DNA from: Octopus vulgaris
Taxonomy: Eukaryota
Length of the DNA stretch: 64,000 nucleotides
Reading direction: 5' to 3'
Assembly (NCBI GenBank): GCA_951406725.2
Contig: OX597824.1
Coordinates: forward strand, 16,182,001 to 16,246,000
This document shows, piece by piece, positions 8,971 to 62,511 of this stretch. Under the pieces are notes generated by a model. It had not been told where the DNA came from and ran no database searches. It saw only the letters and a program-made list of their open reading frames with translations. How positions within the stretch are numbered: the first letter of the stretch is position 1; every line of letters begins with the position of its first letter. Made by a program: the position numbers and the translations under genes.

Positions 8971-9228
8971 ATATACGATTGTGTTTGTTTTGTTGACTCT
9001 TGACTTTCTTCTTCGGTAATCTATAATTATTACTTATTGTGTTTTGGAAGTGAAATCTTTGTAAGATCTTCTAGAAAACTTCAGGATTATGTAGGTACAT
9101 TTAGCACAACGTGGTAGCTACTCCGTTATAGTGACTAGCAAGGTGCTATAACAGAAAAACTAAATCACTTACATAGGTACAAAAACACACAACACACATA
9201 CACAGACGCACATATATGTATATATATA

Positions 9229-9543
9229 TCACCGTGATCACCGTGACCGACCAGGCTATCAGATGTTGCTACACATCGCTGGTCACAATGCGCTTCGCAT
9301 TGTTTTAGCCTTCAAATGACGCCACCCCACTGGCTAAGCGAGCAGGCCAACAGAAGAAAGAGTGAGAGAAAGTTGCGGCGAAAGAGTACAGTAGGGATCG
9401 CCACCCCCCCCCCCCCTGCCGGAGCCTCGTGGAGCTTTTAGGTGTTTTTGCTCAATAAACACTCACAACGCCCGGTCTGGGAATCGAAACCACGATCCTA
9501 CGACCGCGAGTCCACTGCCCTAACCACTGGGCAATTGCGCCTC
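9229..9543 (-). mobile_element. tRNA-derived SINE family S3
   Basis: Reverse complement of 13008-13317; A-box/B-box-like head; tail gtcggtcacggtgatcacggtg running into (TA)n. Confidence 0.9.
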
Positions 9544-9899: not shown

Positions 9900-10162
9900 C
9901 GTGGTCACGTGACCGACCAGGCTCTCAATATCTGATACACATCGTGGGTGGCAGCGCGCTATTGCATTGTTTTAGCTTTCAAATGACGGCACCGCACTGG
10001 CTAGGTGAGCAGCCCCCCCCCCACTGATCGAAAGGTGGATCCAACGGAGCAACGTGAAATGAAGACTTTTGCTCAAGAACACAACGCACCATACAGTGAG
10101 GGAATCGAACCCGCGATCGAGCGATCGTGTGTTGAACAGCCTGACCACTAGGCGACGCGCCT
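9900..10162 (-). mobile_element. tRNA-derived SINE, S3-related with CORE-like middle
   Basis: Minus-strand head ggcgcgtcgcctagtggtcagg...gggttcgattccc; S3-type tail. Confidence 0.75.
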
Positions 10163-10194
10163 TGACACACATACACACACACACACGAACATAT

Positions 10195-10350
10195 AGGCGC
10201 AGGGGTGGGTGTGGGGGAAGAAATTTGCTTCCCAACCACTCGAATCCGGGTTCAGTCCCAGAGCCTGGCACTTTGATCAGGTGTCTTCTATAATAGCTAC
10301 GGTCGTCCAAAGCCTCTTGAGAGGATTTGGTAGACGAAAACCGAAAGAAG
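10195..10350 (+). mobile_element. SINE family S2, 5' half
   Basis: ggcgcaggggtgggtgtggggaag...gggttcagtccca...ggatttggtagacgaaaaccgaaagaag. Confidence 0.8.
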
Positions 10351-10367
10351 CTTGTTGTGTGTGCGTA

Positions 10368-10418
<51 letters not shown>

Positions 10419-10500
10419 GTGTGTGCATGTGTAATATATGGTATAATTATAAGCGGGGCAAATTTTAGCCATTTCTCCGCAGGCTGAAAAAAAAGGCGAA

Positions 10501-10547
10501 CAACCTTATTCGATTTTCGAACCTTATTTGGTTCTCATCAGAGTCTT
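10501..10547 (-). ncRNA. Minimal hammerhead ribozyme candidate
   Basis: Minus strand GACT-CTGATGA-GAACC-aaataa-GGTTC-GAAA-ATCGAA-TA-AGGTT. Perfect core and 5-bp stem II; stems I and III imperfect. Confidence 0.6.
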
Positions 10548-10614
10548 CCACATCATTCTGACGGTCTCCAGAGAAACAAGTAGCCAAACTGTTTATATGC
10601 ATATATATACACTC

Positions 10615-10704
<90 letters not shown>

Positions 10705-10706
<2 letters not shown>

Positions 10707-11360
10707 ACAGCAGTGGCTGTGTGGTAAGTAGCTTGTTTACCAACCACATGGTTCCGGGTTCAGTCCCACTGCATGGCATCTTGGGCAAGTGTCTTCTGCT
10801 ATAGCCTCGGGCCGACCAAAGCCTTGTGAGTGGATTTGGTAGACGGAAACTGAAAAGAAGCCCGTCGTATATATGTATATATATATATGCCTTTCAGCTT
10901 CTGACCAGCGTCGTGTTAACATCGTTGTTTTTCGTCCGCCGCTATAGGCATCGCCGATAAGGCTCCTTTCCTTGCGCCAGAGAAAAAATTTGTTTGCTTG
11001 TTATCAGTCGTAAGACACTTGTTGTTGTTTTCACCGTTAATGCTTCTGTATTTCATGTTTCTGTATTCCATTATTTTTTTGTTTTTTTATATTCGTCCCT
11101 TTTGCTGTCCTGGTGTCCGTATGCATTCGATCCTTCTTCCAGGAAATCTACGCTCCCAGCTTAGTTTTTCTAATGCTCGTTGCTTAGTTTTTCTTGGAGG
11201 GCTGGCCGTGATCTAGTAATCTCAAGATTAATCAGCCGAAATTACTACGATGATCCGGTTCTTGACTGAAGACTGAGGGTTTCGAATGTCCTGTCCGTGT
11301 TTATTGTATCGTCTTCTAAGAGTTATACGTTCTTGTCCATGTTGTATTTTTCTACATACC

Positions 11361-11422
<62 letters not shown>

Positions 11423-11651
11423 TGTGTGTGTATGTTTGTGTGTCTGTGTTTGTCCCCCTAGCATTGCTTGACAACCGATGCCGGTGTGTTTATGTCCCCG
11501 TCACTTAGTGGTTCGGCAAAAGAGACCGATAGAATAAGTACTGGGCTTACAAAGAATAAGTCCCGGGGTCGAGTTGCTCGATTAAAGGCGGTGCTCCAGC
11601 TTGGCCGCAGTCAAATGACTGAAACAAGTAAAAGAGTAAAAGAGTAAAAGA

Positions 11652-11653
<2 letters not shown>
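10705..11653 (+). mobile_element. SINE family S2 interrupted in its internal (TA)n linker by a ~470-bp insert (~10890-11362)
   Basis: Head at 10705-10870 and tail at 11420-11653 with (GAGTAAAA)n end. Part of the insert resembles the reverse complement of 28850-28975. Confidence 0.85.
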
Positions 11654-11692
<39 letters not shown>

Positions 11693-12152
11693 ATGGACCC
11701 TAGAAAATACCGCAATGCATTTTGCCCCATGCTGTTATGATCTATCATTCCACCGTTCTTCATTAAAAGTAATGGTTTCTGATTTAGGTATAAGGCTAGG
11801 TGTGTTGGCACAAGGGTAGGAGTCTTGAGGTAAAGGATTGAGAAAGATATTGTTATAGAACAGAATTAGGAGAACAGATTGAGATTTGACTGTGCTATAC
11901 ATGGAGGCCCGCTCATACCAGTGTATACAAAACAGGATTCTGCGTTAGTAACGTTGTCCACGGATATTTCATGAATACAGCTGGAAATTTATCGACACCA
12001 AAATATACAAAAAAATGTATTTTTTGAAGCATGCAAATCCTAAAGGAATTTAAAATCCCATAAGTAGTTTTGAATGTGCGGGCGTAGGAGAGAACATCAT
12101 TCCAAATTATGTTTGTTGTTATATATTTGCCATATATTCGACATTGACAGTT

Positions 12153-12476
12153 ATTATTACCTCCGCCTTTGCAAAGGCGGAGGTATTGTTTTCAGTCGTG
12201 TTTGTCTGTCTGTTTGTCCTTGGACAAGATATCTCAGGTAACTAGCATGAATTCATTAGATTTTGGGATCGCTCCGGATTCTGGATTATTTTTCCGTTTT
12301 TTTTTTTATAAATTTAATATTTGAGAGCGGTCGAGTTCATTTTTAGTATTCACTTTTGTGACAGCAGTCAAGTTTATTTCATATATTCTCATTTTAAAAA
12401 TCATCTCTCCTTAATTTTTGAGAGGATGCTGCTGTTGCCTTGGCGGAGGTTTGCGCTCTCTGAGTGCTCTTGTTAT
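12153..12476 (+). mobile_element. Helentron-associated non-autonomous element (HINE/DINE-like)
   Basis: 5' hairpin TACCTCCGCC-tttgcaaa-GGCGGAGGTA, (GTTT/GTCT) microsatellite, 3' subterminal ggcggaggtttgcgctctctgagtgc. Confidence 0.7.
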
Positions 12477-12484
12477 TTATATAT

Positions 12485-12640
12485 GTTCGTCTGTCTTACC
12501 GTTCTGAGTTCAAATCCCGCCGAGGTCGACTTTGCCTTTCATTCTTTCGGGGTCGATAAACTAAGTACCAACTGCATACTGGGCTCGATCCAATCTGCCC
12601 CACAAAATTTCAGGCCTTGTGCCTATAGTAAAAAAGATTA
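12485..12640 (+). mobile_element. SINE family S1 (Meta-domain-like), 5'-truncated
   Basis: gttctgagttcaaatcccgccgaggtcgactttgcctttcattctttcggggtcgataaac. Confidence 0.85.
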
Positions 12641-13007
12641 TTTATATTTGTATAAATATTCAAAGAATGTTATCAGAGGAACGACATCAAAGGTATAATC
12701 TGTGTTTTATAGTATTACTCTATTACAGTTAAACGACATTGGGAATGTTTAACAATTGTTAATAGGTTCTACTATAGACTGATTTTCACATTGCAGAAGA
12801 ATTAAACAAATCAAATACAAGGCTAAGCATGAACCCATAGTCTCAGATAATTAAGTAATGATCATTTGTAATGAAGATTTGATAAATATTCATAAATTGA
12901 CGAGACAAAAGTAATAAGAGAAGAGATCTTAATTCTATTAGTTGGCTGCTATTTCGTAATCTATATTAGTTGCACAATTGACGCTGCGTTGCCCACCACA
13001 CATATAA

Positions 13008-13317
13008 GGCGCAATGGCCTAGTGGTTAGGGCAGCGAACTCGCGGTCGTAGGATCGCGGTTTCGATTCCCAGACCGGGCGTTGTGTGTGTTTATTGAGCG
13101 AAAACACCTAAAAGCTCCACGAGGCTCTGGCAGGGGGTGGTGATCCCTGCTGTACTCTTTCACCTCTCTTTCTCTCACTCTTTCTTCTGTTGGCCTGCTC
13201 GCTTAGCCAGCGGGGGGGGGGGCGTCATTCGAAGGCTAAAACAATGCGAACGCATTGTGACCAGCGATGTGTAGCAACATCTGATGGTCTGGTCGGTCAT
13301 GTGTTCATGTGATGTGA
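13008..13317 (+). mobile_element. tRNA-derived SINE family S3, full length
   Basis: ggcgcaatggcctagtggttagggcagcg (A box), ggtttcgattccc (B box), tail catctgatggtctggtcggtc into (TA)n. Confidence 0.9.
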
Positions 13318-13357
13318 TATATATATATATATGTGTGTGTACAGAAATATATATATA

Positions 13358-13558
13358 TGACCTCGTGTGTACCGTTGGCGATTTCTTTTCCTCTGTCTTC
13401 CCTTCCCTGGATCTTTCCTTCTCCTATGTTTCCGACGAAGAGCTCCGTTCGAAACGTTAAACCCTCTTTCTTTCCTTCTTTCCTGAGCGTCCAATAATAC
13501 TATATTTGTTCCACGTCCTCGTGTTGTTGTGTTTCTTTGTGCTTTCTTGTTTGGATTA

Positions 13559-13562
<4 letters not shown>
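13358..13562 (+). mobile_element. Hammerhead-bearing element family A in (TA)n
   Basis: Homologous to 59003-59215. GTTT-CCGACGA-A-GAGC-TCC-GTTC-GAAA-CG-TT-AAAC at 13428-13462. Confidence 0.75.
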
Positions 13563-13611
<49 letters not shown>

Positions 13612-14354
13612 GTGAGGGATTATCAATCCGGGCAAAATAAATCATAAGCTCTTTGTTGGTATACCAGGCTAACAATATTACTTAGATTAGTGAAGAACTT
13701 CGGGTAATCTTTTGGTAGTGTCCAAGCCTTACGAAACACATTATCTCACAGTGATTAAGTTTTAGTATTCCGTTATGTGTACATGTATTTGTGGAATCTG
13801 CAACCGTTTTCATGTTAATATCACCGAGCAGAAATTCAACCCGCGAAACATCTGAATGGTCGTCGTCGATACTGACGGAGAATCTACCACTTTTAGGAGT
13901 GGTAGTCTGTATCTGCCTTGGTCTTGAGCATTACAGGGAGGACATCTGAGGGAACCGAGGATATATCGATGCCATACGGTGTATCATTGGTGATATCGAG
14001 TGCCATACGGAGTAACGTAGTTTTCGGTTTATCCGAACCTATCAGTCTTCAATTAGCAATTCAAAGTATTTATTCCGTAAAGAGATGGAAATAGCAAAGA
14101 ATGAGAGGGAGAGACACCAAGATAGAACTGGTACATTATTTACAGAGTGTAAAACAAAAAGCTGACCACGGCACGGTTTGAGGTAAGAGAACGATTACCG
14201 CAAAGCAACTTCCAGAGGCCTGGACATTTCGGTTAATTCACTGTCTTTAGCTTCTAGACATACGCGTTCGCGCGTTTTCGCGTTGGGTGCATGTATATGT
14301 ATGTACACACACACACGCACATGCATATTTATATATATATATATATGTATGTAT

Positions 14355-14437
14355 GGGCACAGGAATAGCCGTGTGGAAAGAAGCTTGAGCAAGTGGATTT
14401 GGAAGACGGAAACTGAAAGAAGTCCGTCGTATGTATG

Positions 14438-14491
<54 letters not shown>

Positions 14492-14645
14492 TGTGTGTGT
14501 GTGTGTGTATTTGAATTAGGTTCACAAAAGAAACCGAAAGAATAAGTACTAGGCTTTCAAAGAATAAGTCCTGGGGTCGATTTGCGCGACTAAATGCGGT
14601 GCTCCAGCTTGGCCGCAGTCAAATGATTGAAACAAATAAAAGAAA
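14355..14645 (+). mobile_element. SINE family S2 with internal deletions
   Basis: Head remnant and tail gcggtgctccagcttggccgcagtcaaatgattgaaac. Confidence 0.8.
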
Positions 14646-14671
14646 GTAATATATATATATATGTAAATTAG

Positions 14672-14704
<33 letters not shown>

Positions 14705-15313
14705 CGTATTTGAATTAGGTACTAAAGTCGGAGCACCAAGTCAGTTCGGTATTATCGGTGCAGCTCGAAGTAGGATGATTTTAAATCAAAATAAGCAATA
14801 CGACATCAGGTAGTGATTGAACAAGGCAATCATTACATCAATTTAAATACAGTGCCATCATCAGCTGCACAAAAAAATAAATAGAATTTTAGCCAGTTGG
14901 ACACATTAATTGCATTTAAATGGACGTAATGATTGCATTGTTCAATTAAATGGATCCGCTTGAAACGGTTGTACTGCATCACAAACGCACATACGTATGT
15001 ATGTATGTATGCATGTATGCATATATGTATGCATGTATGCATATATGTATGCATGTATGCATATATGTATGCATGTATGTATGTGTATAGATATGTGTGT
15101 GGCTGCCTATATATATATATCCTGAAGACTGGAAAACGCGATTCAGTAGGTTTTCGCGACGATGGAAAGAGAATTTATATAAATCAATTTTGGTCAAGGT
15201 AGAAAGGAGGGGCGGAATCAAGAACGAACTAGAAGAACATTTTGACCAGCCGTGTACAACATCCGATAGTCTGGTCAACACAACATACACACATACATAC
15301 ATACATACATACA

Positions 15314-15360
<47 letters not shown>

Positions 15361-15848
15361 TGGTCAAAACGGTAAGATAACAAAAGAAAGAGACCTCAAT
15401 ATTATGTAAATAGATGAAATTTATCTATAAAATAATATGTTACAATTACTCAATATATATATATGTTGTGTATATATGTATATATATGTATCTATACACA
15501 CACATATATATGTAAGTATATGAGTGTGTGCGTATGTATGTGTATATGTATATATGCATATATTCGTGGGTGTGCGTGCGCGTGTGGCTGATTCTAGTTA
15601 CAACATGTCCAAAGGTAGTTAATTTTCAGTAAATGTTTAAGCTGTTGAATCTATACTCAAAAATACACACACACACAACACACACACGCACGCTCGCACA
15701 CACACAGACACACATACATATGTATTATACATATATATATATTATTCATATATATATTATATATATATATATTATATATATATATGGATTTATATTTATA
15801 TATGCATGTCTGTACACACAAGCAAGCACGCACGCACACACACGCACG

Positions 15849-15895
<47 letters not shown>

Positions 15896-16266
15896 AGAAA
15901 CATCCCGTATCCGAATACATCAACTCGAAACACTTGTTTTATAGATAAACTTTCAACATAATTTACATACATGCGGTATATACAAGGTGTGCATGCGTGC
16001 ATGTGTGCGAGTGAGTGTGCATTTGTGTTTGCACGCGCGTGCGCTCGCTGGCTGACGTTTGTGTCGTGTGTACGTTATAGGAGGGGGAGTCATTTGAGAA
16101 TAATATTTATATTATTGTAACTAATCGATCGTGATCAATCGATTTTGTTCTGCATGTTATGTGAAGTACAGCGAACGATTTGCGAAACGGGCATCGATGG
16201 TTTCCATCATTTATTCATTATTAAATAAACACATGGATACAGATAAGCAAACACGTACATACTACA

Positions 16267-16337
<71 letters not shown>

Positions 16338-16341
16338 AATG

Positions 16342-16385
<44 letters not shown>

Positions 16386-16466
16386 TATGAATACCTACAT
16401 ACATACGCCTACACACATAGATGTGCACACATTGTATAAATGCATAAATATACATACATACAGTCA

Positions 16467-16561
<95 letters not shown>

Positions 16562-16562
<1 letters not shown>

Positions 16563-16780
16563 GCGGCGAGCTGGCAGAAGCGTTAGCACGCCGGGCGAAA
16601 TGCGTAGCCGTATTTCGTATTTCGTCAAATTCCGCCGAGGTCGACTTTGCCTTTCATCCTTTCGGGGGTCGTTAAATTAAGTACCAGTTACGCACTGGGG
16701 TCAATGTAATCGACTTAATCCGTTTGGCTGTCCTTGTTTGTCCCCTCTGTGTTTAGCCCCTTGTGGGTAGTAAAGAAATA
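16562..16780 (+). mobile_element. SINE family S1 (tRNA head, Meta-like domain, Tx1-like tail)
   Basis: ggcggcgagctggcagaa...gcctttcatcctttcggggtcg...tgtgtttagccccttgtgggtagtaaagaaata, flanked by (TA)n. Confidence 0.92.
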
Positions 16781-16938
16781 TATATATATATATATATGCA
16801 TAAATATACTTTTGACGGCAGCAATCCCTTGGGTTCTTAGAAGAGCGTTCGTCATATTTATCTGTGTTTTACTCTTATATGGCAATGGAAGGAAATACGG
16901 GATCTGCATTGGTTGCACATTCGTTCACAACAAATACA

Positions 16939-16986
<48 letters not shown>

Positions 16987-17569
16987 ACTAATTAACTACT
17001 GCTTGTCATTCAGTTACTTAGCCCGTCGGCAAAGCTTTTACATGATTAGAGAAAAAGGCGGTGGAAGAAAAGAGGGAAGGAGAAAAGAGTGAGAGAGAGA
17101 GGAACGTCCCTAATGTAAGGTGGACGGAATGTAATTTTAATGCTTTCACGTGAGTAGTTGGAGGAAAAAAGAGGAGAAAGAAAAGAGACAGAAAATGAGA
17201 ATAAAGCGAAGAGTAATACCGATAGAGGGAGAAAGAAAAAGAGGGAGTGAGAACCGCCTATGACGTGAGGTTGGGGAACGTAATAGTTATTACGTGGTTA
17301 GAAGAGTTGAAGGTAGAGGAGGAGAGTTAAAAATATAATTTTAGCGGAGGGGTGATGTTCTGATGGTGAGGTCAAAATAAGGCTGGGAGAGAGGCGTGAG
17401 AGAGAACGTAAGAGGGGAAAGAGAGAGGATGAGAGACAGATGATGATGATGATTATGGTGGTGGTGGTGGGGATTAGCTAGTGAAAAGTATATAATTTTA
17501 AACTGAACTAAGTTTTATTTAAGTTGCAGATGTATGCAATTTAACAAAAGGTTGTTTCATATTCTTTCA

Positions 17570-17975
17570 GTCTTTTATTCTTTTACTTGTTTCAGTCATT
17601 TAACTGCGGCCATGCTGGAGCACCGTTTTTAGTCGAAGAAATCGACCTCGGGACTTATTCTTTGTAAGTTTAGTATTATATATCGGTCTCTTTTGCCGAA
17701 TCGCTAGGTTACGGGGACGTAAACGCACCGACGTCGGTTGTCAGGCGATTGTGAGACACACACATACACACACACACACACAAACGTATATATATATAAA
17801 TATATATATATACGAACGGCTTCTTTCAGTTTCCATCTAGCAAATCCTCTCACAAGGCTTTGGTCGGCCCGAAGTTACAGTAGAAGATACTGGCCCAAGG
17901 TGCCCCGTAGCGAGACTGGACTCGGAACCATGTGGTTGGGAAGCAAGCTTCTTACCGCACAGCCACTCCTGTGCC
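17570..17975 (-). mobile_element. SINE family S2
   Basis: Reverse complement of 53949-54375 over its full length. Confidence 0.9.
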
Positions 17976-18439
17976 TATGTACAGGATATATATATGTTTT
18001 TATAGGTAGAAAATGGAAAAATCAGAGTAATTCTTTAAAATTTATGAGTGCTGTGCATTAAGTCTATCAAAATTGTGCATAATATATATAAAGTGTACAT
18101 ATATAAAGTGCATTAAGTAATCATTGTATTCCAATTTTTGTCACTTTTAAATGAGCAGCGGACGAGCGACCATCTTTTCATACAGACACAACAGAGGCTA
18201 CGCTTTCAGGCGTTTTAGGTAAAGTCTTCAGAAATAATTCAATAGGTTTACCATTAATTCCGTGAAATACTCACGGGTCCCTCTAGTTCACATAAATTTA
18301 TCGATAAGGAGGCCACTATGTGATCACTTACCCCAGCTAGATCTTCCTTCACATCAAACCCTTTTCTTAGTCTAGGAAGCGTATAAAAGCTGGTAACTAT
18401 GGCTTCAATATATTTCACCCTGTATATGTTCTTAATCCA

Positions 18440-18637
18440 ATAATAATGGTTTCGAATTTTGGTTCAAGACCAGCATATTCGGGCGAGTGGTTAAGTCGAT
18501 TACATTGACTCTAGTACGCTACTGGTACGTATTTTATCCCCAAAAGGATGAAAGGTAAAGTTGATTTCAGCGAGATTTGAACTCAGAACGTAATGACGGG
18601 GGAAATGGCTCTAACGATTCTGCCAGCTCACCGCCTT
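18440..18637 (-). mobile_element. SINE family S1, diverged
   Basis: aaggatgaaaggtaaagttg...tttgaactcagaacgtaa...ctgccagctcaccgcc. Confidence 0.8.
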
Positions 18638-18668
18638 AATAATAATGATGATAATAATAATAATAATG

Positions 18669-18701
<33 letters not shown>

Positions 18702-18723
18702 GTAGTAGTAGTAGTAGTAGCAA

Positions 18724-18782
<59 letters not shown>

Positions 18783-18814
18783 ATAATAATAATAAGAAGA
18801 AGAAGAAGAAGAAG

Positions 18815-19185
18815 AATGTATGATAATCGACGTAGCATGCCCCGGTGACAACAGGATCAATGTGCAAGAAGAAGAAAAAAAACAGCTCTGACGATTTTAA
18901 GTGGGAAATACGAAGGTTGTGGTCAATGAAGAGAGCAGACGTGATACCAATCTTGATTGGTGTACTTGGAAGTATCTGCACTCAACTACCAACATGGATG
19001 TAAAAGGTTGGTGCAAGTGTGAAGGTAGAGCACCTACAAAAATCAGTATTGCCTGGAACTGCAAGAATTCTTCGCAGAGTTCTTGAAGCATGACCAGTAA
19101 ACAAGTGTCACCTTGGTCTGCTGGCTGTGGACAGCTGACACTTTCCATCATACTCAGCAAAATAAAGCGAAGAGTTTTCATATAA
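18815..19185 (+). pseudogene. 3' fragment of an R4/Dong-type non-LTR element (restriction-like endonuclease C-terminus)
   Basis: Manual translation CMIIDVACPGDNRINVQEEEK/DDFKWEIRRLWSMKRADVIPILIGVLG...QKSVLPGTARILRRVLEA with a frameshift and a stop; follows a (TAA)n-rich tract. Confidence 0.85.
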
Positions 19186-19299
19186 TGATAATGTTACACA
19201 CGTAGTAAGTGAATGTAGAGATTACTCATGTAGCGGTGGTGCCCCAGCATGGCCGCGGCCTTCGGGCTAAAACATTTTTAAGGATTTAAGGATTTATAG

Positions 19300-19895
19300 G
19301 AAGTGAATGTAGCATGCTAGCACAGAAAGAATACAAGAAAAGACATGACAACCTAGGGAGAGTAATCCACTGGGAGTAGTGTAGAAAGCTAGGATTTGAA
19401 CATACTGATAAATGGTATGAACATGGATTTAGGAAAGTGCTAGAAAGTAAGAAATATAAGATGTTGTGGGACTTTGACATTTAGACTGACAAAGGAATAG
19501 AAGGTAGAATGCCTGGTATAGTAGCAATAGACAGAGAGAGTAGAAAATGTCAGACAATTGACTTTACAGATCCAAATGAGGAAAATATCAATATGAGAGG
19601 TATAGAAAAATAGCAAAGTACCAAGACCTAGCCATTGAATTACAGAGATTATGGAAAGTGCAGGTAAAATGTATCCCAGTAGTTATAGGTGCATAACCCT
19701 TAAAGATTTGAACAGATGGATTGAGGAAATAGGCGTAAAACCTAGTCTACTACAGCTCCAGAGAACTGTGTTTTTCGGGTCAGCTAGGATATTTTGGAGG
19801 GCTCTTGGCACCTCAGGTTACTTATTGAAGCCCGATGATAGGAATTTTTGTTTTCCAACAGTCTAATCTATTGTGTGTATATGAAAATGGTAATA
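19300..19895 (+). pseudogene. Second R4/Dong-type RLE endonuclease fragment
   Basis: SECSMLAQKEYKKRHDNLGRVIHWE...KWYEH...LWDFDI*TDK...KYQDLAIELQRLWKVQVKCIPVVIGA, with stops and frameshifts. Confidence 0.88.
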
Positions 19896-19909
19896 ACAGT
19901 CCCTTATCT

Positions 19910-20120
19910 TATAAGGCCTAAAATTTGATGGGAGGGTGGGTTTGGTGCTGTACGTCGATTGTATCGATCCCAATGCCTAATTAGTACTTATTTTGTCGAC
20001 CCCGAAAGGATGAAAAGCAAAGTCGACCTCGGCAGAATTTCAACTCAGAACATATAGCCGGACGAAATGCCGGTAAGCATTTTGCTCGGTGTACTAACGA
20101 TTCTGACAGCTCGCCGCCTT
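19910..20120 (-). mobile_element. SINE family S1
   Basis: gtcgaccccgaaaggatgaaaagcaaagtcgacctcggcagaattt...cagctcgccgcc. Confidence 0.85.
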
Positions 20121-20154
20121 AGTAAATAATAATAATAATAATAATTTTAATATA

Positions 20155-20400
20155 TAGAAAATGAAGAAGGTGAAGATAGTGCTAATTATTGTTGGGTCCT
20201 TGGGGACCGTATCAGAAGACATCAAAAGGAATATCAAAGAAATTGGAATAGAGTGCTCAGTAGAACTTACAATAGGTTTGACTCCTTGGCACAGCCAGAA
20301 TAAACAGGAAAGTATTAGATAACTGAAAAAAAACGGATAGCATGGTACCGTAGCAAGACTTCAGGAGTCCAGGAGTCCAACGAAAGCTGTGATACAAAGA
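20155..20400 (+). pseudogene. Third R4/Dong-type 3' fragment
   Basis: KMKKVKIVLIIVGSLGTVS...LLGTARINRKVLDN*, flanked by (AAT)n on both sides. Confidence 0.75.
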
Positions 20401-20420
20401 AATAATAACAATAACAAAGA

Positions 20421-20760
20421 TGCCTTGATGCAGTACCAGACAGTGGCTATCGTGGCTTCTGATCTTAACTGATTGGAAGTGTTATCATGTACATTGTTTT
20501 GTCTTGGTAAAAAAGATGGGCTACAGTATATATTTTGCTCAATAACACAGATTTGCTTGTCAGTTGTTTGACCTTAATCAGTTGACCATGTCCCTTAGTG
20601 GCTGACGATATGTGCATCTCTGATCATGAGCAGAAGTAGCGGAGGATCATGATAGCTATCTGTTGAGAAGAATTCTTTGGGGTTTGAATAATTTACCTGT
20701 GGAAATATGGGCGTTTCATTCATTATCGTTAAACAACCCTTATTCAGGGACCTTTTAAGT
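20421..20760 (+). mobile_element. Non-coding (TAA)n-associated element, partial copy
   Basis: Homologous to the reverse complement of 30586-31130. Confidence 0.8.
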
Positions 20761-21771
20761 GAGGTAAAGTTGACCTCAGCAGGATTTGAAATTACGACAT
20801 ACAGTGTCAGAAGAAATTACATTTGTCTGATGGTCTAACGATTTAGTCTTCTCGCCACCTTAGGTGACACCAAGATTATGATAGTGATTTGTAATAATGG
20901 TACGAAAGGATGCATTTTAGAGAATAGGGTTTTGTTGATTATCTGTGGCCAATGTTTGACTAGATTTTATATTAGAGACCTATGAATGGATGATAAGGAA
21001 AATACGTTTCATGGTGGGAATCGTGTTCGACACGTCTTACACTAATATAATATGGCTGCCATTTGAACATGCTTGGTATTGTAAAGTTGTCAATTTCGTT
21101 AGGTATTGTAATTGTCTCACATTACACTTACACTCAAAAATATCCCACACACAACTATAAACACGCGGACATACACACAAAGCTATAATCGCACTTACAC
21201 ATACCCTTATAAACACTTCCACACATACATAATGAACACTCGCTGTACAATTCGAAATGAAGAATGAATTAGGAATGTACATCAGAGAAATTACATTTAC
21301 TAATGGTGTCAAATTTGTACTTTGAAGAATTCTGAACATTATTCTACTATGACAAGGAAGAAGAGCCAACCGGCCGGCCGGCCAGCCAGCCAACCATCTT
21401 CTTGTAAGTTTCTGATATTTAAGTGTATCCTCCGTCTGATTCTTAATCTTATTTGCTAGGTTAGTTGAGACAGCAATTAAAGGATAAAATGACTTAGCTA
21501 AATTTAGCCGGTGAATATTACAGCACGTGGTATTGAATTGCTGGATTGTTAGACCTTTTGTAAATAGAGTAATCATGTAGAAAGAGAGGCTTATTAATAC
21601 AGAAGTATTTGATATTTATATAGTATTTAGTAACATAAGCTTGCTCCGCCATATTTACTACTTAAAAGAAATTATATTTTCTAGCGGGAGACTTTCTAAC
21701 AGGGATGGTATTTTAACTTGGTTCGGTTAGAATATAATCATGAGATCATGTTTAACTAAATTATATTATGA

Positions 21772-21951
<180 letters not shown>

Positions 21952-21961
21952 TATATATAGG

Positions 21962-22028
<67 letters not shown>

Positions 22029-22537
22029 CATATATATATATATATACATACATACATACCTACTTATAAGTAGGTGGAGCAAATTTCATAGCAGAGTTAA
22101 TTAAATGCATTCACCAAGTCAGGCTGTATTAATTTCGCAAGTAATACGTTATATTATAAATGGTTGATATTTTAAATTAGGCAAGTAATATTGTAGTATG
22201 GATGGTGAAATTTGTGAAAATGATATTTAAATGTGAGAATTATAACCAGCAAATCGTTAGAATCTGTTTTTCCTGTTTAATTTTCATTAATTTATACATT
22301 TATTTACTATTTATTGAGATATATGTTTGTTTGTTGTTTGGCATTTTATTTCCTTAGAGTTTATTCTGCGTATTATTCTCTTAAGAATAATCAATGTTTT
22401 TTTGTATTTTTATATTTATTTGGTAATTTCACAGATGCAGTAAGAATCTGTGTGCGGCTCACAGATGTGCAACGAAAGATCCAGAGGCTAACGAAGATCA
22501 CATAAATAAATGGAAGAATATTTATAACAGTGTGAAG

Positions 22538-22870
22538 GCGCATGACTCAGTGGCTAGAGCGTCGAACGTACGATCGTCAGGTTGTGAGTTCGAATCCCGG
22601 ACCGGACTGCGTGTTGTGTTCTTGAGCAAGACACTTCATTTCACGTTGCCCCAGTTCACTCAGCTGTAGAAATGACTTGCGACGTCATTGGTGCCAAGCT
22701 GTATCGGCCCCTTTGCCTTTCCCTTGGATAACATCAGTGGTGTGGAGAGGGGAGAGTGGTATGCCTGGGCGACTGCTGTTCTTCCATAAACAACCTTGCC
22801 CGGACTTGTGCCTGGTGAGGGGGTAACTGTCCAGGTGCAATGTCATGGCTATTCGTGACCGAAGTGGGTC
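22538..22870 (+). mobile_element. tRNA-derived SINE with CORE-like domain
   Basis: ggcgcatgactcagtggctagagcg...gagttcgaatcccgg...gttgtgttcttgagcaagacactt; related copy at 41409. Confidence 0.85.
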
Positions 22871-23526
22871 TCCGAAATTTATAACAGTACCCTAGTTTAT
22901 AAAGTGCCCTAGTTTATAAAGTGCCAAGTAATATCATGAGTCTTGTAAGACTCATTGCCTGTGCGATTAGGAAGCTTCCTTGCAATCACGTGGTTTGAGG
23001 ATCATTCACACTGCAAGACATCATTAAACAAAGTACTCGCGTCGATTTGTCCGAGAAAAAAAGTCTTCCAGACGGTGGCCCAGCTTTGTCGTAGTCCAAT
23101 ATCTGAAACAAATAAAAGATAAAATGTGCAAAAGAAAGAAACAAAATTTCAGATTTAAAAAAATTATGCTATTCTTATCCGGATCTGGAGTTGACATCAT
23201 TGACTAACTTCCTTCCAATATTTACGGATTAGCAACTAAATCAAGGACCAAAATTGCAAATATACTCTAGGCAGTGGATTAGCAGAATAGGTAGAGCTAT
23301 AAGCAAATTACCCTGCATTGTTATATTACATTTAATTCGCATTCCGAGTTCAAAGCCCGAGGAATTAATACATGAAGTAAGAACCGTATACAAGTCGAAT
23401 TTTTGCGACCAAAGTTTACTGCCAAAATTGGCAGGTCGACTTATACAAGAGAACGATTTTGGAAAACCAAAGATCGCAATGATGCAAAGCGGCTGCAGTT
23501 GCGAAGATAGCGACGATGTTTGAATG

Positions 23527-24046
23527 TGTTATGTCGCATGTTCGGATGCCTTCTACTCAACTCGACCCTGACCTCTGTCGACGTCTAGACTTCTCCCAAT
23601 ATATATCTACGTATTGGGATAGCTTATTTCATCGTCTGGGGACGTCCACACAACACCTCCCCTTTTTGAGTTTTTAAACCCGAATTTATCAATTTTATTT
23701 CCTCAGTGAGAAACTGGCATATCCTTTTCTCTTAGCGTTAATTTCCATCATTTCTGTAGGTTTTCTCTTCCTGTTCGACCTACGTGTCGGTTCTGCTTTT
23801 GCTTGTGGTTCTGGGTCCTCGAACACTTTTGCTTGCGGTTCTGGGACCTGGAACAAATCATACCATAAACCCATTGAGATATTCCCGCGTGAGTTCGAAT
23901 CTCGTCCTCGTCGCCACTGTTATGTCGCTCGTTCGGATGCCTTCTACACTCAACTCGATTCTGACCTCTGTCGACGTCTAGACTTCTCCCTATACATCTA
24001 CGTATTGGGCTAGACTATTTCATCGGCTGGGGGCGTCCACACAACA
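23527..24046 (-). mobile_element. Miniature internally deleted Gypsy-type LTR element (TRIM-like)
   Basis: Two 129-bp LTRs (23527-23655 and 23918-24046) with TGTT...AACA ends, GAATG 5-bp TSD on both sides, minus-strand PBS TGGCGACGAGG and PPT AAAAAGGGGAGG. Confidence 0.93.
23868..23916 (+). pseudogene. Reverse-transcribed 3' half of tRNA-Ser(GCU) including CCA (extended PBS)
   Basis: AA-CCCAT-TGAGATATTCCCGC-GTGAG-TTCGAAT-CTCGT-CCTCGTC-G-CCA is colinear with anticodon stem 3' strand, long variable arm, T arm, acceptor strand and CCA. Confidence 0.8.
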
Positions 24047-24761
24047 GAATGTTTACACAACATGATTATAACACCGATTCGTAAGCCCGAACAGATAGCA
24101 ACAACCAAATACAATTATTAGCGCCTTTAAAGTGTAAGAAGTACACATGTGCAGCAAATGACTGTCGTCATTCTGTTCTCATTCCACTAAACTGTCTGCT
24201 GCTCTCCGTCAAATAAATGAATATGCAAATAAATAAATAAATGACAAATAATAACGGTTGATGAAAATATTTATTTATAATCAGAAATCTCGGCCAGTTT
24301 AATTAATAGCAATTCAAAATTTGGTCAGTGATTCATTTTAAAATATAATAATTTAAAAAAGAAAAGCAAGACATGACAAAAATTTTGATATTTATATCAT
24401 TTTATTAATTTTGTTATTATTGTATTATTTCTATTTTAATTTTTATTTCACTTGTAACATTCTGACTTTCGTTTCATTTTCTTCTATTTATATTTCATTT
24501 GATTTTTGTATTTATATTTCATTTCTTTTAAACTTATTTATTATTTTTTTAATTTCATTTTATTATGTATGTATTTTATTTCCATTAATTTTTTATTTAT
24601 ATTTAAGTATTTCATAAATATAACTTTTGTTTTATTTTTTTGCAGTTTTTCCACAATAATATAAAAGACAAAATCTGAAATGTAAAAGATAACAAAAGTC
24701 AAGAAAAAATTTGGAAATCGCTTCTAAATTTAAAAGAAAATATTATATTCATATATTTGTC

Positions 24762-24822
<61 letters not shown>

Positions 24823-24827
<5 letters not shown>

Positions 24828-24978
24828 CCTACCTCACGGCAAGTGGTACAAATTAGGGTAGCTATATCAAACTCCATTCTTCATCAAGTGCCACGTATTA
24901 GACGAGGTTCCTAGTAATAACGGTGTAGCGCAAAACGGCGGTGCATCAGCATGGACGCAGCTCTGAGCTGAAACTTTA
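24823..24978 (+). mobile_element. 3'-terminal fragment of the CR1-group LINE
   Basis: [29 protein letters not shown] plus the same 3' UTR as 6089-6156. Confidence 0.9.
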
Positions 24979-25058
24979 TAAATTATATATATATACATAT
25001 ATGTGTGTGTGTGTGTATGTGTGTGTACAAACATGTATGTACATATATATGTGTCAAT

Positions 25059-25101
<43 letters not shown>

Positions 25102-25109
25102 GTCCCTAC

Positions 25110-25275
25110 ACACATTTTTTCCTCTCCTTGTTTCTTTCTGTTCCTTTCTGTGGAAGAGCGTAGGCTCGAAACGTAAAAGACTTTTTCGATTCCCGAGGGT
25201 TATACTTAGACACCTGTTTGTTTTCTACACCACCTGTCTTTGTCTTTTGTTGTTTTTTTCATGAATTTTTCCCAT
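25110..25275 (+). mobile_element. Hammerhead-bearing element family B
   Basis: CTTT-CTGTGGA-A-GAGC-GTAG-GCTC-GAAA-CG-TA-AAAG at 25144-25179; ends in (TA)n. Confidence 0.7.
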
Positions 25276-26641
25276 ATATATATATATTTGGCACATACAA
25301 GGTAGATATATCTACTTTGTATGTGCCTCAATAAATATTATTATATTAAAAGCGATACTTCACTTCATGCAATTATGTGCAGCATTGGAAAACGTATTCC
25401 TTTATCTAATTGTACATGAAGGCATTCATTTGGTCGAGTCACCCTCTGTATGTACACACTTTTAATTTATATGCTGTATTCTTTCTAAACATGGTATGTG
25501 ATACACCAAATTAAACTTATTTACGTAGGGGAACAAAGGAATAGAAAGCGGGGGATAAAATATTGTATAGTTTGATCTGGGTTATACTTAACACAGAAAC
25601 AAAAATTATGGTTGCGATTGCCACTGTTGCAAACTCATTTCCAACCCTGTTCTGAAAGATCAAGGCCTGCTTCGGGTTAAAGGGTAGTAGACGTAGCCCC
25701 AGGAGCAACAGTAAGAGCAATGCCCTAACTATCTGGTAGACAATCATAAACTAGCCCCTTTTTGTAATGTTCAATGATAGAGGTCAAATTATCAACACAT
25801 CAACTATGAAATGTAAATAACACCTTGAATGTGATGTTGTCACTGAAGTCATCAATTAACATCAATCTTTATGATAGCAATAAAAACAAAGCAAAATAAC
25901 AATCGGTTGAATCATATGTCCTTGAGACAATTTTGCTTCTTTATTTTGTTTCAGTCAAAAGACTGAGACCAGGCTGGAGCACAGCCTACTGAAAGAATGA
26001 GAAGTAAATAACAGTTTAAACTGACATTAATAGCCAAATCTAAATTTAAACCTTCATACAGACATATCTGCTCTAGACGTCCAGTGTTAGATATTTATTA
26101 ATTTAACAACACCCCAATGACCGTCATTGTCACGACAACCCCTGCACCAGTTGAGGAATTTTATAATAACTAGGTGAATGCATAATTTATTAGTTTGAAA
26201 TATTGTAAATATTTTCCATTGTGTTTCTTTGTGTTTGTTTTATTCTATCAATTTCTCTACTGATTAAAATAGAAAGATAGAAAAAAAATATTTAACCCTC
26301 TTTGTTTTTGCGTTCCTGTGTATGATTGTGTGTACGCTTACATTCGATACGGACTTGTGAAGTAGAGCGAGGAAGATCATCTGAGTAAAAACGAACCGAG
26401 CTAAGCTACAAATGACAGCGTTTCGTGTGATTTTGTCAAGCCATTCAGGCAGTCTCTGCCATAGAGGAGGCGAAGTCACGTCGAAACATCGTAACTTAGG
26501 GTCCCCTGATATTTATTTTTTGTACACAAATTATATAGACAAATTTTTCATCGAGAAAACATATAGAGTGAATGCATTTCACGTTTTAGTTACAGGAACG
26601 CTAAAAGTAAATGACTGAGCTCGGTCTTGTGTGGTCAGTTA

Positions 26642-26691
<50 letters not shown>

Positions 26692-26707
26692 TACATACAT
26701 ACATACA

Positions 26708-26743
<36 letters not shown>

Positions 26744-26864
26744 TATATATGTATGTATATGTATATGCATATGTGTGTGTGCGTGTGGATGTGTGTGTGA
26801 ATAAATATTCAAATGAATATTTATATAGATATTATTACTATTATTATTAGCAGCAAAATAAATA

Positions 26865-27025
<161 letters not shown>

Positions 27026-33560: not shown

Positions 33561-33607
<47 letters not shown>

Positions 33608-33659
33608 AGTATAGGAAAGAATGGAGCTGAACGAAGATTTAACAAAATTCCTTTATTTT

Positions 33660-33745
33660 ATTTTCGACATATGTTTCGAAGTCTGCAAAATCCCTAATTC
33701 CGAATGAATAAGGAGTCCATTATGCAGCTTTCTCTTCAGGAAAAT
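33660..33745 (-). ncRNA. Type I hammerhead ribozyme, canonical core, palindromic stem III
   Basis: ATTTTC-CTGAAGA-GAAAGCTGCA...TGCAGACTTC-GAAA-CATATG-TC-GAAAAT; 6-bp stem I and a GUC cleavage triplet. Confidence 0.88.
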
Positions 33746-33904
33746 CCAGGAACTTCTTTCGCCAACAAAATGCACAACAAGTTTTTAGATGACTGCTCAC
33801 AGAGGCGCAGAAGTGGCTGTATGGTAATTAGTTTGCTTACCAATCACGTGGCTCTGGGTTCAGTCCCACTGCGCGGCACCTTGGGCAACTGTTCCCTACT
33901 ATGA

Positions 33905-56468: not shown

Positions 56469-56564
<96 letters not shown>

Positions 56565-56697
56565 TGAGTGTATTTTACCTTGTTAACAATTAACACGGAT
56601 AAATGAATGAATAGTTACCAGGGCAGCAAAAATCTCACAAGTAAATATCAATAACAAGGTTATTGTATCTGAAGTCAATCCCAATAGAATTAAATTT

Positions 56698-57087
56698 ATG
56701 TCAAGTAACTCTAAGATTAAAAATTCTATATACCAGTGTATAATCAGTACTCGTAATAAAGTACGATTTTACATTGGAAGCACATCGTTAGAGTTATCTA
56801 AGAGAATTTCTATCCATTACTCAACATTTAGGGATAGAAATAAACGGAATAGTACCGGTCTCAGCAAACTGATTTGGGATTTAAAAGACCACAATGAACA
56901 ATTTCATTTAGAATGGTTGATCCTCTCAATTTCGATACCATATGACAAAGGCAAGAAATTCTGTCTTCTCTGCAATTCTGAGCTATTTTTCATTATTTTT
57001 TCTAAAAATACTCTAGTAAACACGGTTACAGAACGAGCATACAGATGTAAGCATTGGCAGAAACATACTTTTAGTGCATATAAGTAG
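56698..57087 (+). CDS. GIY-YIG endonuclease of Penelope-like element type (resembles Naiad-type C-terminal domain)
   Basis: SIYQC...FYIGSTS...KRISIH...STGLSKLIWDLK...LEW...CLLCNSE...LVN...RCKH; uninterrupted 129 aa. Confidence 0.85.
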   Translation: MSSNSKIKNSIYQCIISTRNKVRFYIGSTSLELSKRISIHYSTFRDRNKRNSTGLSKLIWDLKDHNEQFHLEWLILSISIPYDKGKKFCLLCNSELFFIIFSKNTLVNTVTERAYRCKHWQKHTFSAYK

Positions 57088-57287
57088 TCTCTATCATTAT
57101 ATATAGTTTAGACTTTAATTTCCTTTATATTTAACATTCACTATTAATATCCCTACTCTTTCTGTTAGTTACTTATGACGTTTTATCATATAACGTTTTT
57201 TTAAACGATATTAATAGCGTTCTGTCTATCGCTATACGAATCCATCATTTTTTGCTAAAATGTCGTATTGACAAGTTTCGTTTTTTC

Positions 57288-57374
57288 ACTTTCCCGAAGA
57301 GAAGATTGCATTGTTTATACCTTTTATTCTTTTGAATAAGTATCAGTGGAATTTTTGAAACATATGTAGAAAGT
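57288..57374 (+). ncRNA. Type I hammerhead ribozyme (U4C core variant)
   Basis: ACTTTC-CCGAAGA-GAAGATTGCA...TGGAATTTTT-GAAA-CATATG-TA-GAAAGT; same architecture as 33660-33745. Confidence 0.78.
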
Positions 57375-57501
57375 AAAAATACTTGTTTAAACCTGTGTTA
57401 ACTCCATTTTTTATTCATATATATATATATATATATGCATATATGCCTATATATATGCACATATATGTACATACTTACATCTATACGTACATATATAAAT
57501 A

Positions 57502-57562
<61 letters not shown>

Positions 57563-57564
<2 letters not shown>

Positions 57565-57680
57565 GCCTGCTCGCTTAGCCAGCGGGGTGGCGTCATTTGA
57601 AGGCTAAAACAATGCGAACGCATTGTGACCAGCGATGTGTAGCAACATCTGATAGCCTGGACGGTCACGTGATCACGTGA
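57563..57680 (+). mobile_element. 3' tail of SINE family S3 in (TA)n
   Basis: ggcctgctcgcttagccagcggggtggcgtc...ggtcacgtgatcacgtga. Confidence 0.88.
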
Positions 57681-57850
57681 TATATATATATATATATATA
57701 TAATTTCAACAATTTCAGTGTGCCAACGTTGAGGGTGCCAACCCTGAGGGTGTGGGAGGTATTGGCCCTAGTAGCTTCATAAACCTGAAAAATATTTCTG
57801 CTATTTCTAATGAGTTCAGTATGTGGCAAAGTAATTTATTTTACTAAGCC

Positions 57851-57919
<69 letters not shown>

Positions 57920-58160
57920 TATGTGGGCACAAGACATCACAAAACGTAAATAACAAAAAATACGAAATACAAGGACATGGAATATGAACTTTTTTTGCGA
58001 GCAAGGAAACAAACAAATGGAAAACAAGACAAGCAACATAAAGAACGACCCTTCATCAGTTGTCGGCTGTTTTTCTAATCCGTATTTCGAGCATTTTCAT
58101 GACAAGATACTCCTTCGATAAACCAGTTGCTCCCGCAAAGCAAATTAAATAAAATTTGGG
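57920..58160 (-). mobile_element. Family C-related element in (TA)n
   Basis: Minus strand gctcGAAAtacggattagaaaaacagccgacaaCTGATGAagggtcg. Confidence 0.6.
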
Positions 58161-59002: not shown

Positions 59003-59209
59003 TGACCGCGTGTGTACCGTTGGCGATTTTTCTTCCTCCGTCTTCCCTTCTCTGGATCTTTCCTTTTCCTATGTTTCTGACGAAGAGCTCCGCTCGAAAT
59101 ATTAAACCCTCCTTCGTTCCTTCCTTCCTGAGCGTCCAATAATACTATATTTGTTCCACGTCCTCGCGTTGTTGTGTTTTCTCTTTGTGTTTCCATGTTT
59201 GGATTAACT

Positions 59210-59215
<6 letters not shown>
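59003..59215 (+). mobile_element. Hammerhead-bearing element family A
   Basis: GTTT-CTGACGA-A-GAGC-TCC-GCTC-GAAA-TA-TT-AAAC at 59073-59107. Confidence 0.8.
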
Positions 59216-59267
<52 letters not shown>

Positions 59268-59418
59268 GTGTGTAGTTAATCCAAACATGGAAACAAAGAG
59301 AAAACACAACAACGCAGACGGAAAATATATATATATATATATATATAATATATATATATATACACATAAATGTGAAACAAGGTGGAAAAAAGAGTACTCA
59401 AATACCAGTGGTAGAGTA

Positions 59419-59580
59419 ATATGCTTTATTTAAAGCAGCAGAACATTCAACAAAATCTGTTACTCTGAGTTTCTCGTTGCCGTTCGTCAGACAGTTTTTG
59501 CTAGCAAAAACTGTCTGATGAACGGCAACGAGAAACTCAGAGTAACAGATTTTGTTGAATATTCTGCTGCTTTAAATAAA

Positions 59581-59586
<6 letters not shown>
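59419..59586. repeat. 168-bp spacer-less palindrome with a hammerhead motif on each strand
   Basis: 84-bp arms centred on GCT|AGC (59502/59503); three mismatches counted by eye. Confidence 0.95.
59511..59548 (+). ncRNA. Minimal hammerhead ribozyme
   Basis: CTGT-CTGATGA-ACG-GCAA-CGA-GAAA-CTCAGAG-TA-ACAG; mirror copy on the minus strand at 59457-59494. Confidence 0.72.
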
Positions 59587-62315: not shown

Positions 62316-62511
62316 GGCGCCAGGTTCAGTCCCATTGCATGGCACCTTGGTCAGATATCTTCTATTATAGCCTTAGGCAAACCAAAGCCTTGTGAGTGGA
62401 TTTAGTAGACGGAAACTGAAAGAATCCAGTGGTATATATATATACCTGAGCGTCAATAATACTTTAATTGTTCCACGTCCTGCGTTGCTGTGTTTTTTTC
62501 TTTATATGTTT

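Follow-up and report, generated by a model that had tools for sequence, protein, structure and literature searches.

Positions 56646–57416 of the window, the 64,000-nt stretch of Octopus vulgaris DNA analysed here, are most likely a 5′-truncated insertion of a high-copy Hydra-type Penelope-like element (PLE), in front of which a piece of the same repeat family (56563–56645) has been joined. The argument for this structure builds on a junction between the two pieces, variable truncation points in other copies, homology that continues upstream of the nuclease start codon, Hydra-type motifs and a missing cysteine linker. We infer that the source of the family encodes a reverse transcriptase (RT) and that the window copy is inactive; it was probably mobilised passively and is unlikely to move other elements itself. 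The locus is mostly ordinary, being one of many truncated PLE tails.

The nuclease frame on the plus strand is open from stop to stop over 158 codons (56611–57087) and runs for 129 codons from the ATG at 56698 to a TAG at 57085–57087. A preliminary description of this DNA had reported an intact 129-aa GIY-YIG open reading frame (ORF) preceded by in-frame TAA (56584) and TGA (56608) codons, and both observations were confirmed. The Pfam GIY-YIG match of the ORF had an E value of 0.001 and 19.8 bits, below the cut-off of 22.6. A structure predicted for the nuclease (pLDDT 77) retrieved only GIY-YIG nucleases in the best nine rows of a Foldseek search, including T4 EndoII, Hpy188I and I-TevI, with a best E value of 0.083 and no row reaching E ≤ 0.001, and its neighbours in the ESM Atlas were unnamed and GIY-YIG clusters at 0.94–0.96. 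The Y, YxG, R, H, E and N positions of the GIY-YIG domain are intact, with Arg65 read from the translation, and Cys118, Cys121, Glu124, Asn137, Cys146 and His148 of the 158-aa frame provide the CxxC/E/N/CxH arrangement. The intact state of the frame counts against its reading as a truncated tail. The coordinates of all features are collected in the table.

Table. Features of the PLE-derived insertion and its (TA)n flanks (window coordinates).
Feature	Position	Strand	Remarks
(TA)n run, left flank	56509–56562		likely insertion target; target duplication unreadable
Attached 83-nt piece of the same repeat family, containing both stops	56563–56645		likely an inverted extension ('tail') from beyond the element 3′ end; orientation inferred
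Junction, 3-nt overlap (AAA) common to both joined pieces	56643–56645	+	contigs diverge on each side
RT-EN linker region, final 17 codons, same frame as the nuclease	56646–56697	+	lacks CxCX5C; assigned by homology
GIY-YIG endonuclease, Hydra type, from an internal Met	56698–57087	+	129 aa; CxxC = CLLC, CxH = CKH, without CCHH
3′ untranslated region	57088–57287	+	
Type I hammerhead motif	57288–57374	+	core at 57294–57300 (U4C); cleavage predicted after 57368; stem III palindromic
3′ end of copy	57375–57416	+	likely reverse-transcription start, from PMC11167929
(TA)n run, right flank	57418–57435		

The hammerhead motif, 200 nt past the nuclease stop codon and with (TA)n on both sides of the element, likewise agrees with the preliminary description. 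A strict hammerhead descriptor gave one match in the window and none in each of 30 block-shuffled windows. All three stems are present (stem I of 6 bp, a long stem II and a short palindromic stem III), and the core, CCGAAGA, is non-canonical (U4C), a change that had gone unmentioned; the core of a related motif at 33739–33666 is canonical. The fold had a z-score of −1.76, with 7 of 200 shuffles equally good, and the motif was detected in Rfam neither at the gathering threshold nor at E ≤ 10. The U4C change is described as considerably reducing activity in vitro while still permitting viroid infectivity (PMC3088659), and short palindromic stems III are thought to be functional in dimers (PMC4209133). 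No tandem copy of the unit occurs within the 64-kb window, which holds a single unit with a coding frame, and the similarity between the 5′ piece and the 3′ end, as a terminal inverted repeat, was not above chance (124 of 500 shuffles as good).

Comparison with related proteins places the edge of homology at 56643–56646 and not at the ATG, because both the codons upstream of the ATG and the upstream extension of the nearest named protein match relatives. This protein, P0001 of Octopus sinensis, is 65% identical and extends 147 residues upstream of the GIY Tyr, with a W-F-x-x-P-type linker motif 136 aa upstream; the corresponding motif in RT-bearing relatives lies 94–139 aa upstream of the GIY Tyr (five of six match the pattern), between the thumb and the nuclease. 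Codons 13–29 of the window frame, directly upstream of the Met, share 10 of 17 residues with P0001, and 0, 15, 13 and 0 of 10,000 shuffles were as good against P0001, P0002, P0007 and P0011, respectively. Residues 1–12 did not match these relatives (scores of 2, 2 and −6; only two comparable positions in P0011). The residues opposite the window Met are Leu, Leu, Leu and Pro in the same four proteins, all the close relatives checked, suggesting that this Met is most likely an internal residue and not a conserved start of the domain, so the earlier assignment of an own ATG as domain start is not supported. As had been described, the codons upstream of the ATG contain no RT thumb or Cys linker. 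A native closure of the frame was, by contrast, not confirmed, since both stops lie to the left of the junction in the separately joined 83-nt piece; in other copies the 30 letters before 56643 contain no stop in the ORF frame (by eye). Splicing was considered as a cause of the junction, as an AG closes the sequence that precedes it in other copies, yet no placement of the cut gives GT-AG (by eye), and it was rejected.

To characterise other copies we used public sequencing runs, where the stretch is present in 20 of 24 listed runs (3 organisms, 10 studies). Alignment of four of these runs at 80% identity placed 2194, 2025, 30 and 61 contigs. The summed depth in the two large runs was ~4 × 10^4 to 4 × 10^5 as against 42–91 for single joints, which suggests thousands of family copies, depth being no strict copy number. 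None of the runs with the stretch is recorded as RNA; X4 and X11 are RNA by guess only and consist of contig data, so that their depths are no evidence of transcription or cleavage. Contigs on the nuclease side depart from the window sequence upstream of 56643 (8 in X1, 12 in X3 and 1 in X4), and those of the 5′ piece do so downstream of 56645 (19 in X1, 13 in X3, 1 in X4 and 1 in X11); this loose-end evidence comes from the 24 listed of 377 rows. Twelve of the 15 listed joints (of 23) connect the 5′ piece to a further point that differs in every case: ten of these points are past the nuclease stop codon, one is in the domain and one is at 56646; none of the 15 changes strand. The pattern is best described, from these contigs, as variable 5′ truncation plus a common attached end, because one 5′ piece is fused to 12 different points, most of them without the nuclease. 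Elsewhere the 5′ piece is followed by a motif of which the window contains no instance. Pieces spanning the window's own junction numbered zero among the 32 listed of 4341, a weak absence given that repeat contigs are short, and one X3 contig links 56631 to 56646, which is nearly the window's junction; the latter could mean a shared, amplified structure and counts against a truncated tail.

Variants in 56646–57084 numbered 23 among the 40 listed of 151, and 15 of the 23 are synonymous, compared with an expected share of 20–30% (p between 3 × 10^−6 and 4 × 10^−4, the sites being non-independent). This bias points to selection on the nuclease of the source lineages and is silent on the presence of RT in the sources. 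A dN/dS below 1, proposed earlier as a sign of an endonuclease-only element, is thus seemingly present among the listed variants and would be equally expected of an RT-EN source. Searches in other collections yielded three loci in a metagenome pattern scan, which matched a 20-nt pattern only, at 44–52% GC, and were taken as chance, and one locus in a genome collection, which was rejected as an Hsp90-like ORF by reading; the viral collection gave no match. In X4, the summed depth over window positions 57250–57374, which include the hammerhead, was 10,000–27,000, compared with 14–134 on the nuclease and untranslated region. Such a depth could come from a small hammerhead RNA that a related family produces in abundance, which contigs cannot show.

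The simplest reading of the contig tables locates the 5′ piece just past the family 3′ end, ~65 nt beyond 57416. This placement follows by table arithmetic from X4 record 32, which carries 123 letters beyond 57416 although no X4 record overruns the ends, and from a piece of equal depth (14.1) that covers the 5′ piece from 56587 in the same run. Minus-strand contig records were taken as numbered in their own sense, as judged from X11 record 14, and on the same arithmetic the 5′ piece is somewhat more probably inverted than direct relative to the family 3′ end. Book-keeping of depth allowed 71 solutions, some with the 14.1 piece crossing the junction. Within the window, 56563–56645 occurs only once, and its similarity to the element 3′ end is not significant. 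The preliminary description had offered, as one option, a 5′-truncated copy with a foreign 5′ segment; the truncation and the attached segment fit the evidence, whereas the segment is not foreign but a high-copy piece of the same family.

Structures of this kind are described for PLE insertions, which show 5′ truncation, an inverted 5′ copy, a one-sided 'tail' and microhomology junctions (PMC8557442; PMC3846280), and in vitro the PAc protein cleaves both strands and primes extension of each, using two internal start sites (PMC11167929). The window itself contains a worked example from an unrelated family at 59362–59586: a head-to-head pair with 84-nt arms that are 96% identical and a 57-nt one-sided tail, in (TA)n. 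This pair is a hammerhead-bearing PLE-like end with a stem III like those tabulated for Hydra elements.

For the window copy, an RT-EN protein of the full-length source would nick both strands of (TA)n, as drawn from PMC11167929 and PMC8557442. A first cDNA would start at 57416, run back through the hammerhead and nuclease and stop at 56643–56646, and a second, short cDNA, primed by the opposite strand, would start on the RNA ~150 nt downstream of the first. Joining of the two cDNAs at the 3-nt overlap would place the 5′ piece in front, likely inverted, within the same insertion event; the stops would then be part of the attached piece, and the ATG would encode an internal Met.

A search of 1.84 billion representative proteins gave 2423 matches at E ≤ 0.001. 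Among the best 150 of these, six carry an [YF]RDD RT motif upstream in the same chain, 236–343 aa before the nuclease domain, and three of the six are named Argonauta hians proteins. The CxCX5C linker occurs in all six RT-bearing matches and in P0014, and in 50 of the 96 matches among the best 150 of 2423 that have at least 30 upstream residues. None of its cysteines is found in the aligned part of the window frame or in that of P0001, P0002 and P0011; P0007 has one, and P0001 contains no Cys in the 147 residues before its domain. Asn-rich expansions are present in the linker of the Hydra-type proteins P0001, P0041, P0090 and P0133, and similar expansions have been described in rotifer Penelope ORFs (PMC3846280).

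Penelope/Poseidon, Neptune, Nematis and Naiad PLEs are described as carrying a CCHH motif and two Cys inside the GIY-YIG core, whereas the Hydra clade is described as having a C-terminal GIY-YIG domain without CCHH, CxxC and CxH around E and N, a CxCX5C linker, an RT with RWK and DKT motifs in the same ORF, a canonical hammerhead near the 3′ end and insertion in (TA)n (PMC8557442). The window nuclease lacks the CCHH motif that defines the former PLEs, and the element has CxxC and CxH and is flanked by (TA)n; directly ahead of the nuclease, however, there is no CxCX5C linker. For this reason the element is called Hydra-type and not a member of Hydra; the lack of CxCX5C in an element that is still in (TA)n marks it as a variant. 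Hydra-1_Obim of Octopus bimaculoides and other members of the clade share with it the CCHH-less C-terminal GIY-YIG domain with CxxC before E and CxH after N, and also a type I hammerhead motif near the 3′ end, insertion into (TA)n and the linker motif upstream, the last being seen in its relatives (PMC8557442). The window element differs from the clade in its much longer stem II, its U4C core and the fact that no RT is seen, and from Hydra-1_Obim in particular in that the latter has the CxCX5C linker (PMC8557442). The family is distinct from Hydra-1_Obim, as judged from the available description of that element, and it may already be catalogued.

An alternative accepts the truncation of the copy and places the absence of RT in the full-length source itself, which would comprise linker, nuclease and hammerhead and depend on the RT of another Hydra family in the same genome, for example Hydra-1_Obim; we consider it unlikely. 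The relatives bear on it in both directions. In a tree of 31 rows (the window and 30 matches chosen from the best 150 for likeness to the query), the window falls inside a 10-row clade with a support of 99/98 and no RT-bearing row, which speaks for an RT-less source and, as the RT of the window family is not seen, against a truncated tail. However, the clade rows are fragments of 156–237 aa, too short for an RT to be expected, and the close rows come mostly from contigs of 0.9–2.4 kb, so that the missing RT says little; the clade is also partly built in by the selection for query likeness and may in part be an ascertainment effect. Searches for longer relatives, which were weak, gave nothing new or P0001 itself, and a tblastn search of the window with 164 proteins for RT elsewhere gave only five weak matches outside the locus. 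P0001, a 208-aa sequence for which O. sinensis has two identical annotations, starts 11 residues before the linker motif, but it ends before the CxxC/E/N half and is no intact nuclease gene. The lost Cys linker and the mostly synonymous variants would also fit a source without RT; against this, the clade retains RT-EN linker sequence (P0001 and P0014, the latter with CxCX5C), and RT-bearing Hydra-type elements exist in octopods. The corresponding lineage, an octopod Hydra offshoot that dropped RT and the Cys linker, counts thousands of copies in which purifying selection maintains the nuclease, and combined its own nick with borrowed RT to enter (TA)n as a two-partner PLE, is similarly improbable.

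Least probable, and very doubtful, is a compact 854-bp endonuclease-only unit with a fixed 5′ end at 56563 and its own ATG, as proposed in the preliminary description, or an internal-deletion derivative whose genuine 5′ end would be 56563–56645, directly oriented, with translation from 56698: the depth that stays high up to the 56563 boundary, the intact frame, the near-identical 56631-to-56646 joint of one contig and the reported common end site of Hydra-1_Obim copies, which lack a pLTR (PMC8557442), fit it, whereas the unconserved Met, the three out-of-frame ATGs upstream of 56698, the homology and open frame upstream, the fusion of one 5′ piece to many truncation points, with 10 of the 12 listed joints bypassing the whole nuclease, the lower in vitro activity of U4C cores (PMC3088659) and a weak stem III that would need a partner copy (PMC4209133) speak against it. 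A 56563 boundary common to copies, put forward as its hallmark, was indeed found and does not discriminate between these readings.

As a truncated tail with an attached end, the window copy resembles described PLE insertions: the 3′ end is fixed and lies beyond the hammerhead, the 5′ breakpoint varies, the overlap at the junction is short and a second family-derived end stands on the 5′ side (PMC8557442; PMC3846280; PMC11167929). Unlike in the described PLEs, the attached piece does not reach far enough to share sequence with the main copy and leaves no visible inverted repeat, and the inferred tail of the family, ~150 nt, exceeds the 30–40 nt given for PLEs in these sources. The many short copies of the family resemble non-autonomous PLE derivatives and non-LTR retrozymes, which share hammerhead-bearing 3′ ends and use enzymes in trans (PMC8557442 on MRC1; bioRxiv 10.64898/2026.07.22.740005). 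These derivatives and retrozymes are described as non-coding and often tandem, whereas the window copy is a monomer with an intact nuclease frame; it thus differs from non-LTR retrozymes, whose tandemly arranged units do not code for protein and all carry a type I hammerhead.

The nuclease had further been proposed as the mobiliser of a swarm of (TA)n-associated hammerheads, which the neighbouring repeats do not bear out. The window contains seven CTGANGA cores that are followed by (TA)n at a distance of no more than 220 nt; only the one at 33739–33666 resembles the 3′ end of this element, and four others match only their own families by BLAST. At the level of sequence, we found no tie between the swarm motifs and this nuclease. 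The similar copy (33590–33800, minus strand) is a related hammerhead 3′ end with a canonical core, the same long stem II and a palindromic stem III; it is truncated, ends in (TA)n and contains no nuclease sequence. CTGANGA cores upstream of (TA)n at 57922–58100 (minus strand), 11230–11365 and 14864 (minus strand) do not form a full hammerhead by the descriptor. A 120-nt structured element in (TA)n with a palindrome at its end (57562–57681) has copies at 9228–9348, 13192–13313 and 9900–10015 that are 79–96% identical, and it showed no fitting Rfam family and no hammerhead core. Another short repeat family (59036–59315, 13391–13561 and 62445–62496) includes a hammerhead half-core-like motif at 59077 and a partial copy that lies inverted on the other side of a (TA)n run.

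If the source is truly without RT, the family would represent a nuclease-only PLE lineage, of which we found none in the open-access literature, the available text of bioRxiv 10.64898/2026.07.22.740005 included. The Cys linker has been tied to (TA)n targeting by Craig et al. 2021 (PMC8557442), and a Hydra-type family that lacks these cysteines and yet lies in (TA)n, with one insertion seen directly, provides a natural test of this idea. The short copies composed of an end piece and a 3′ end are, in addition, a potentially large in vivo set for the priming from two start sites that has been shown in vitro for PAc.
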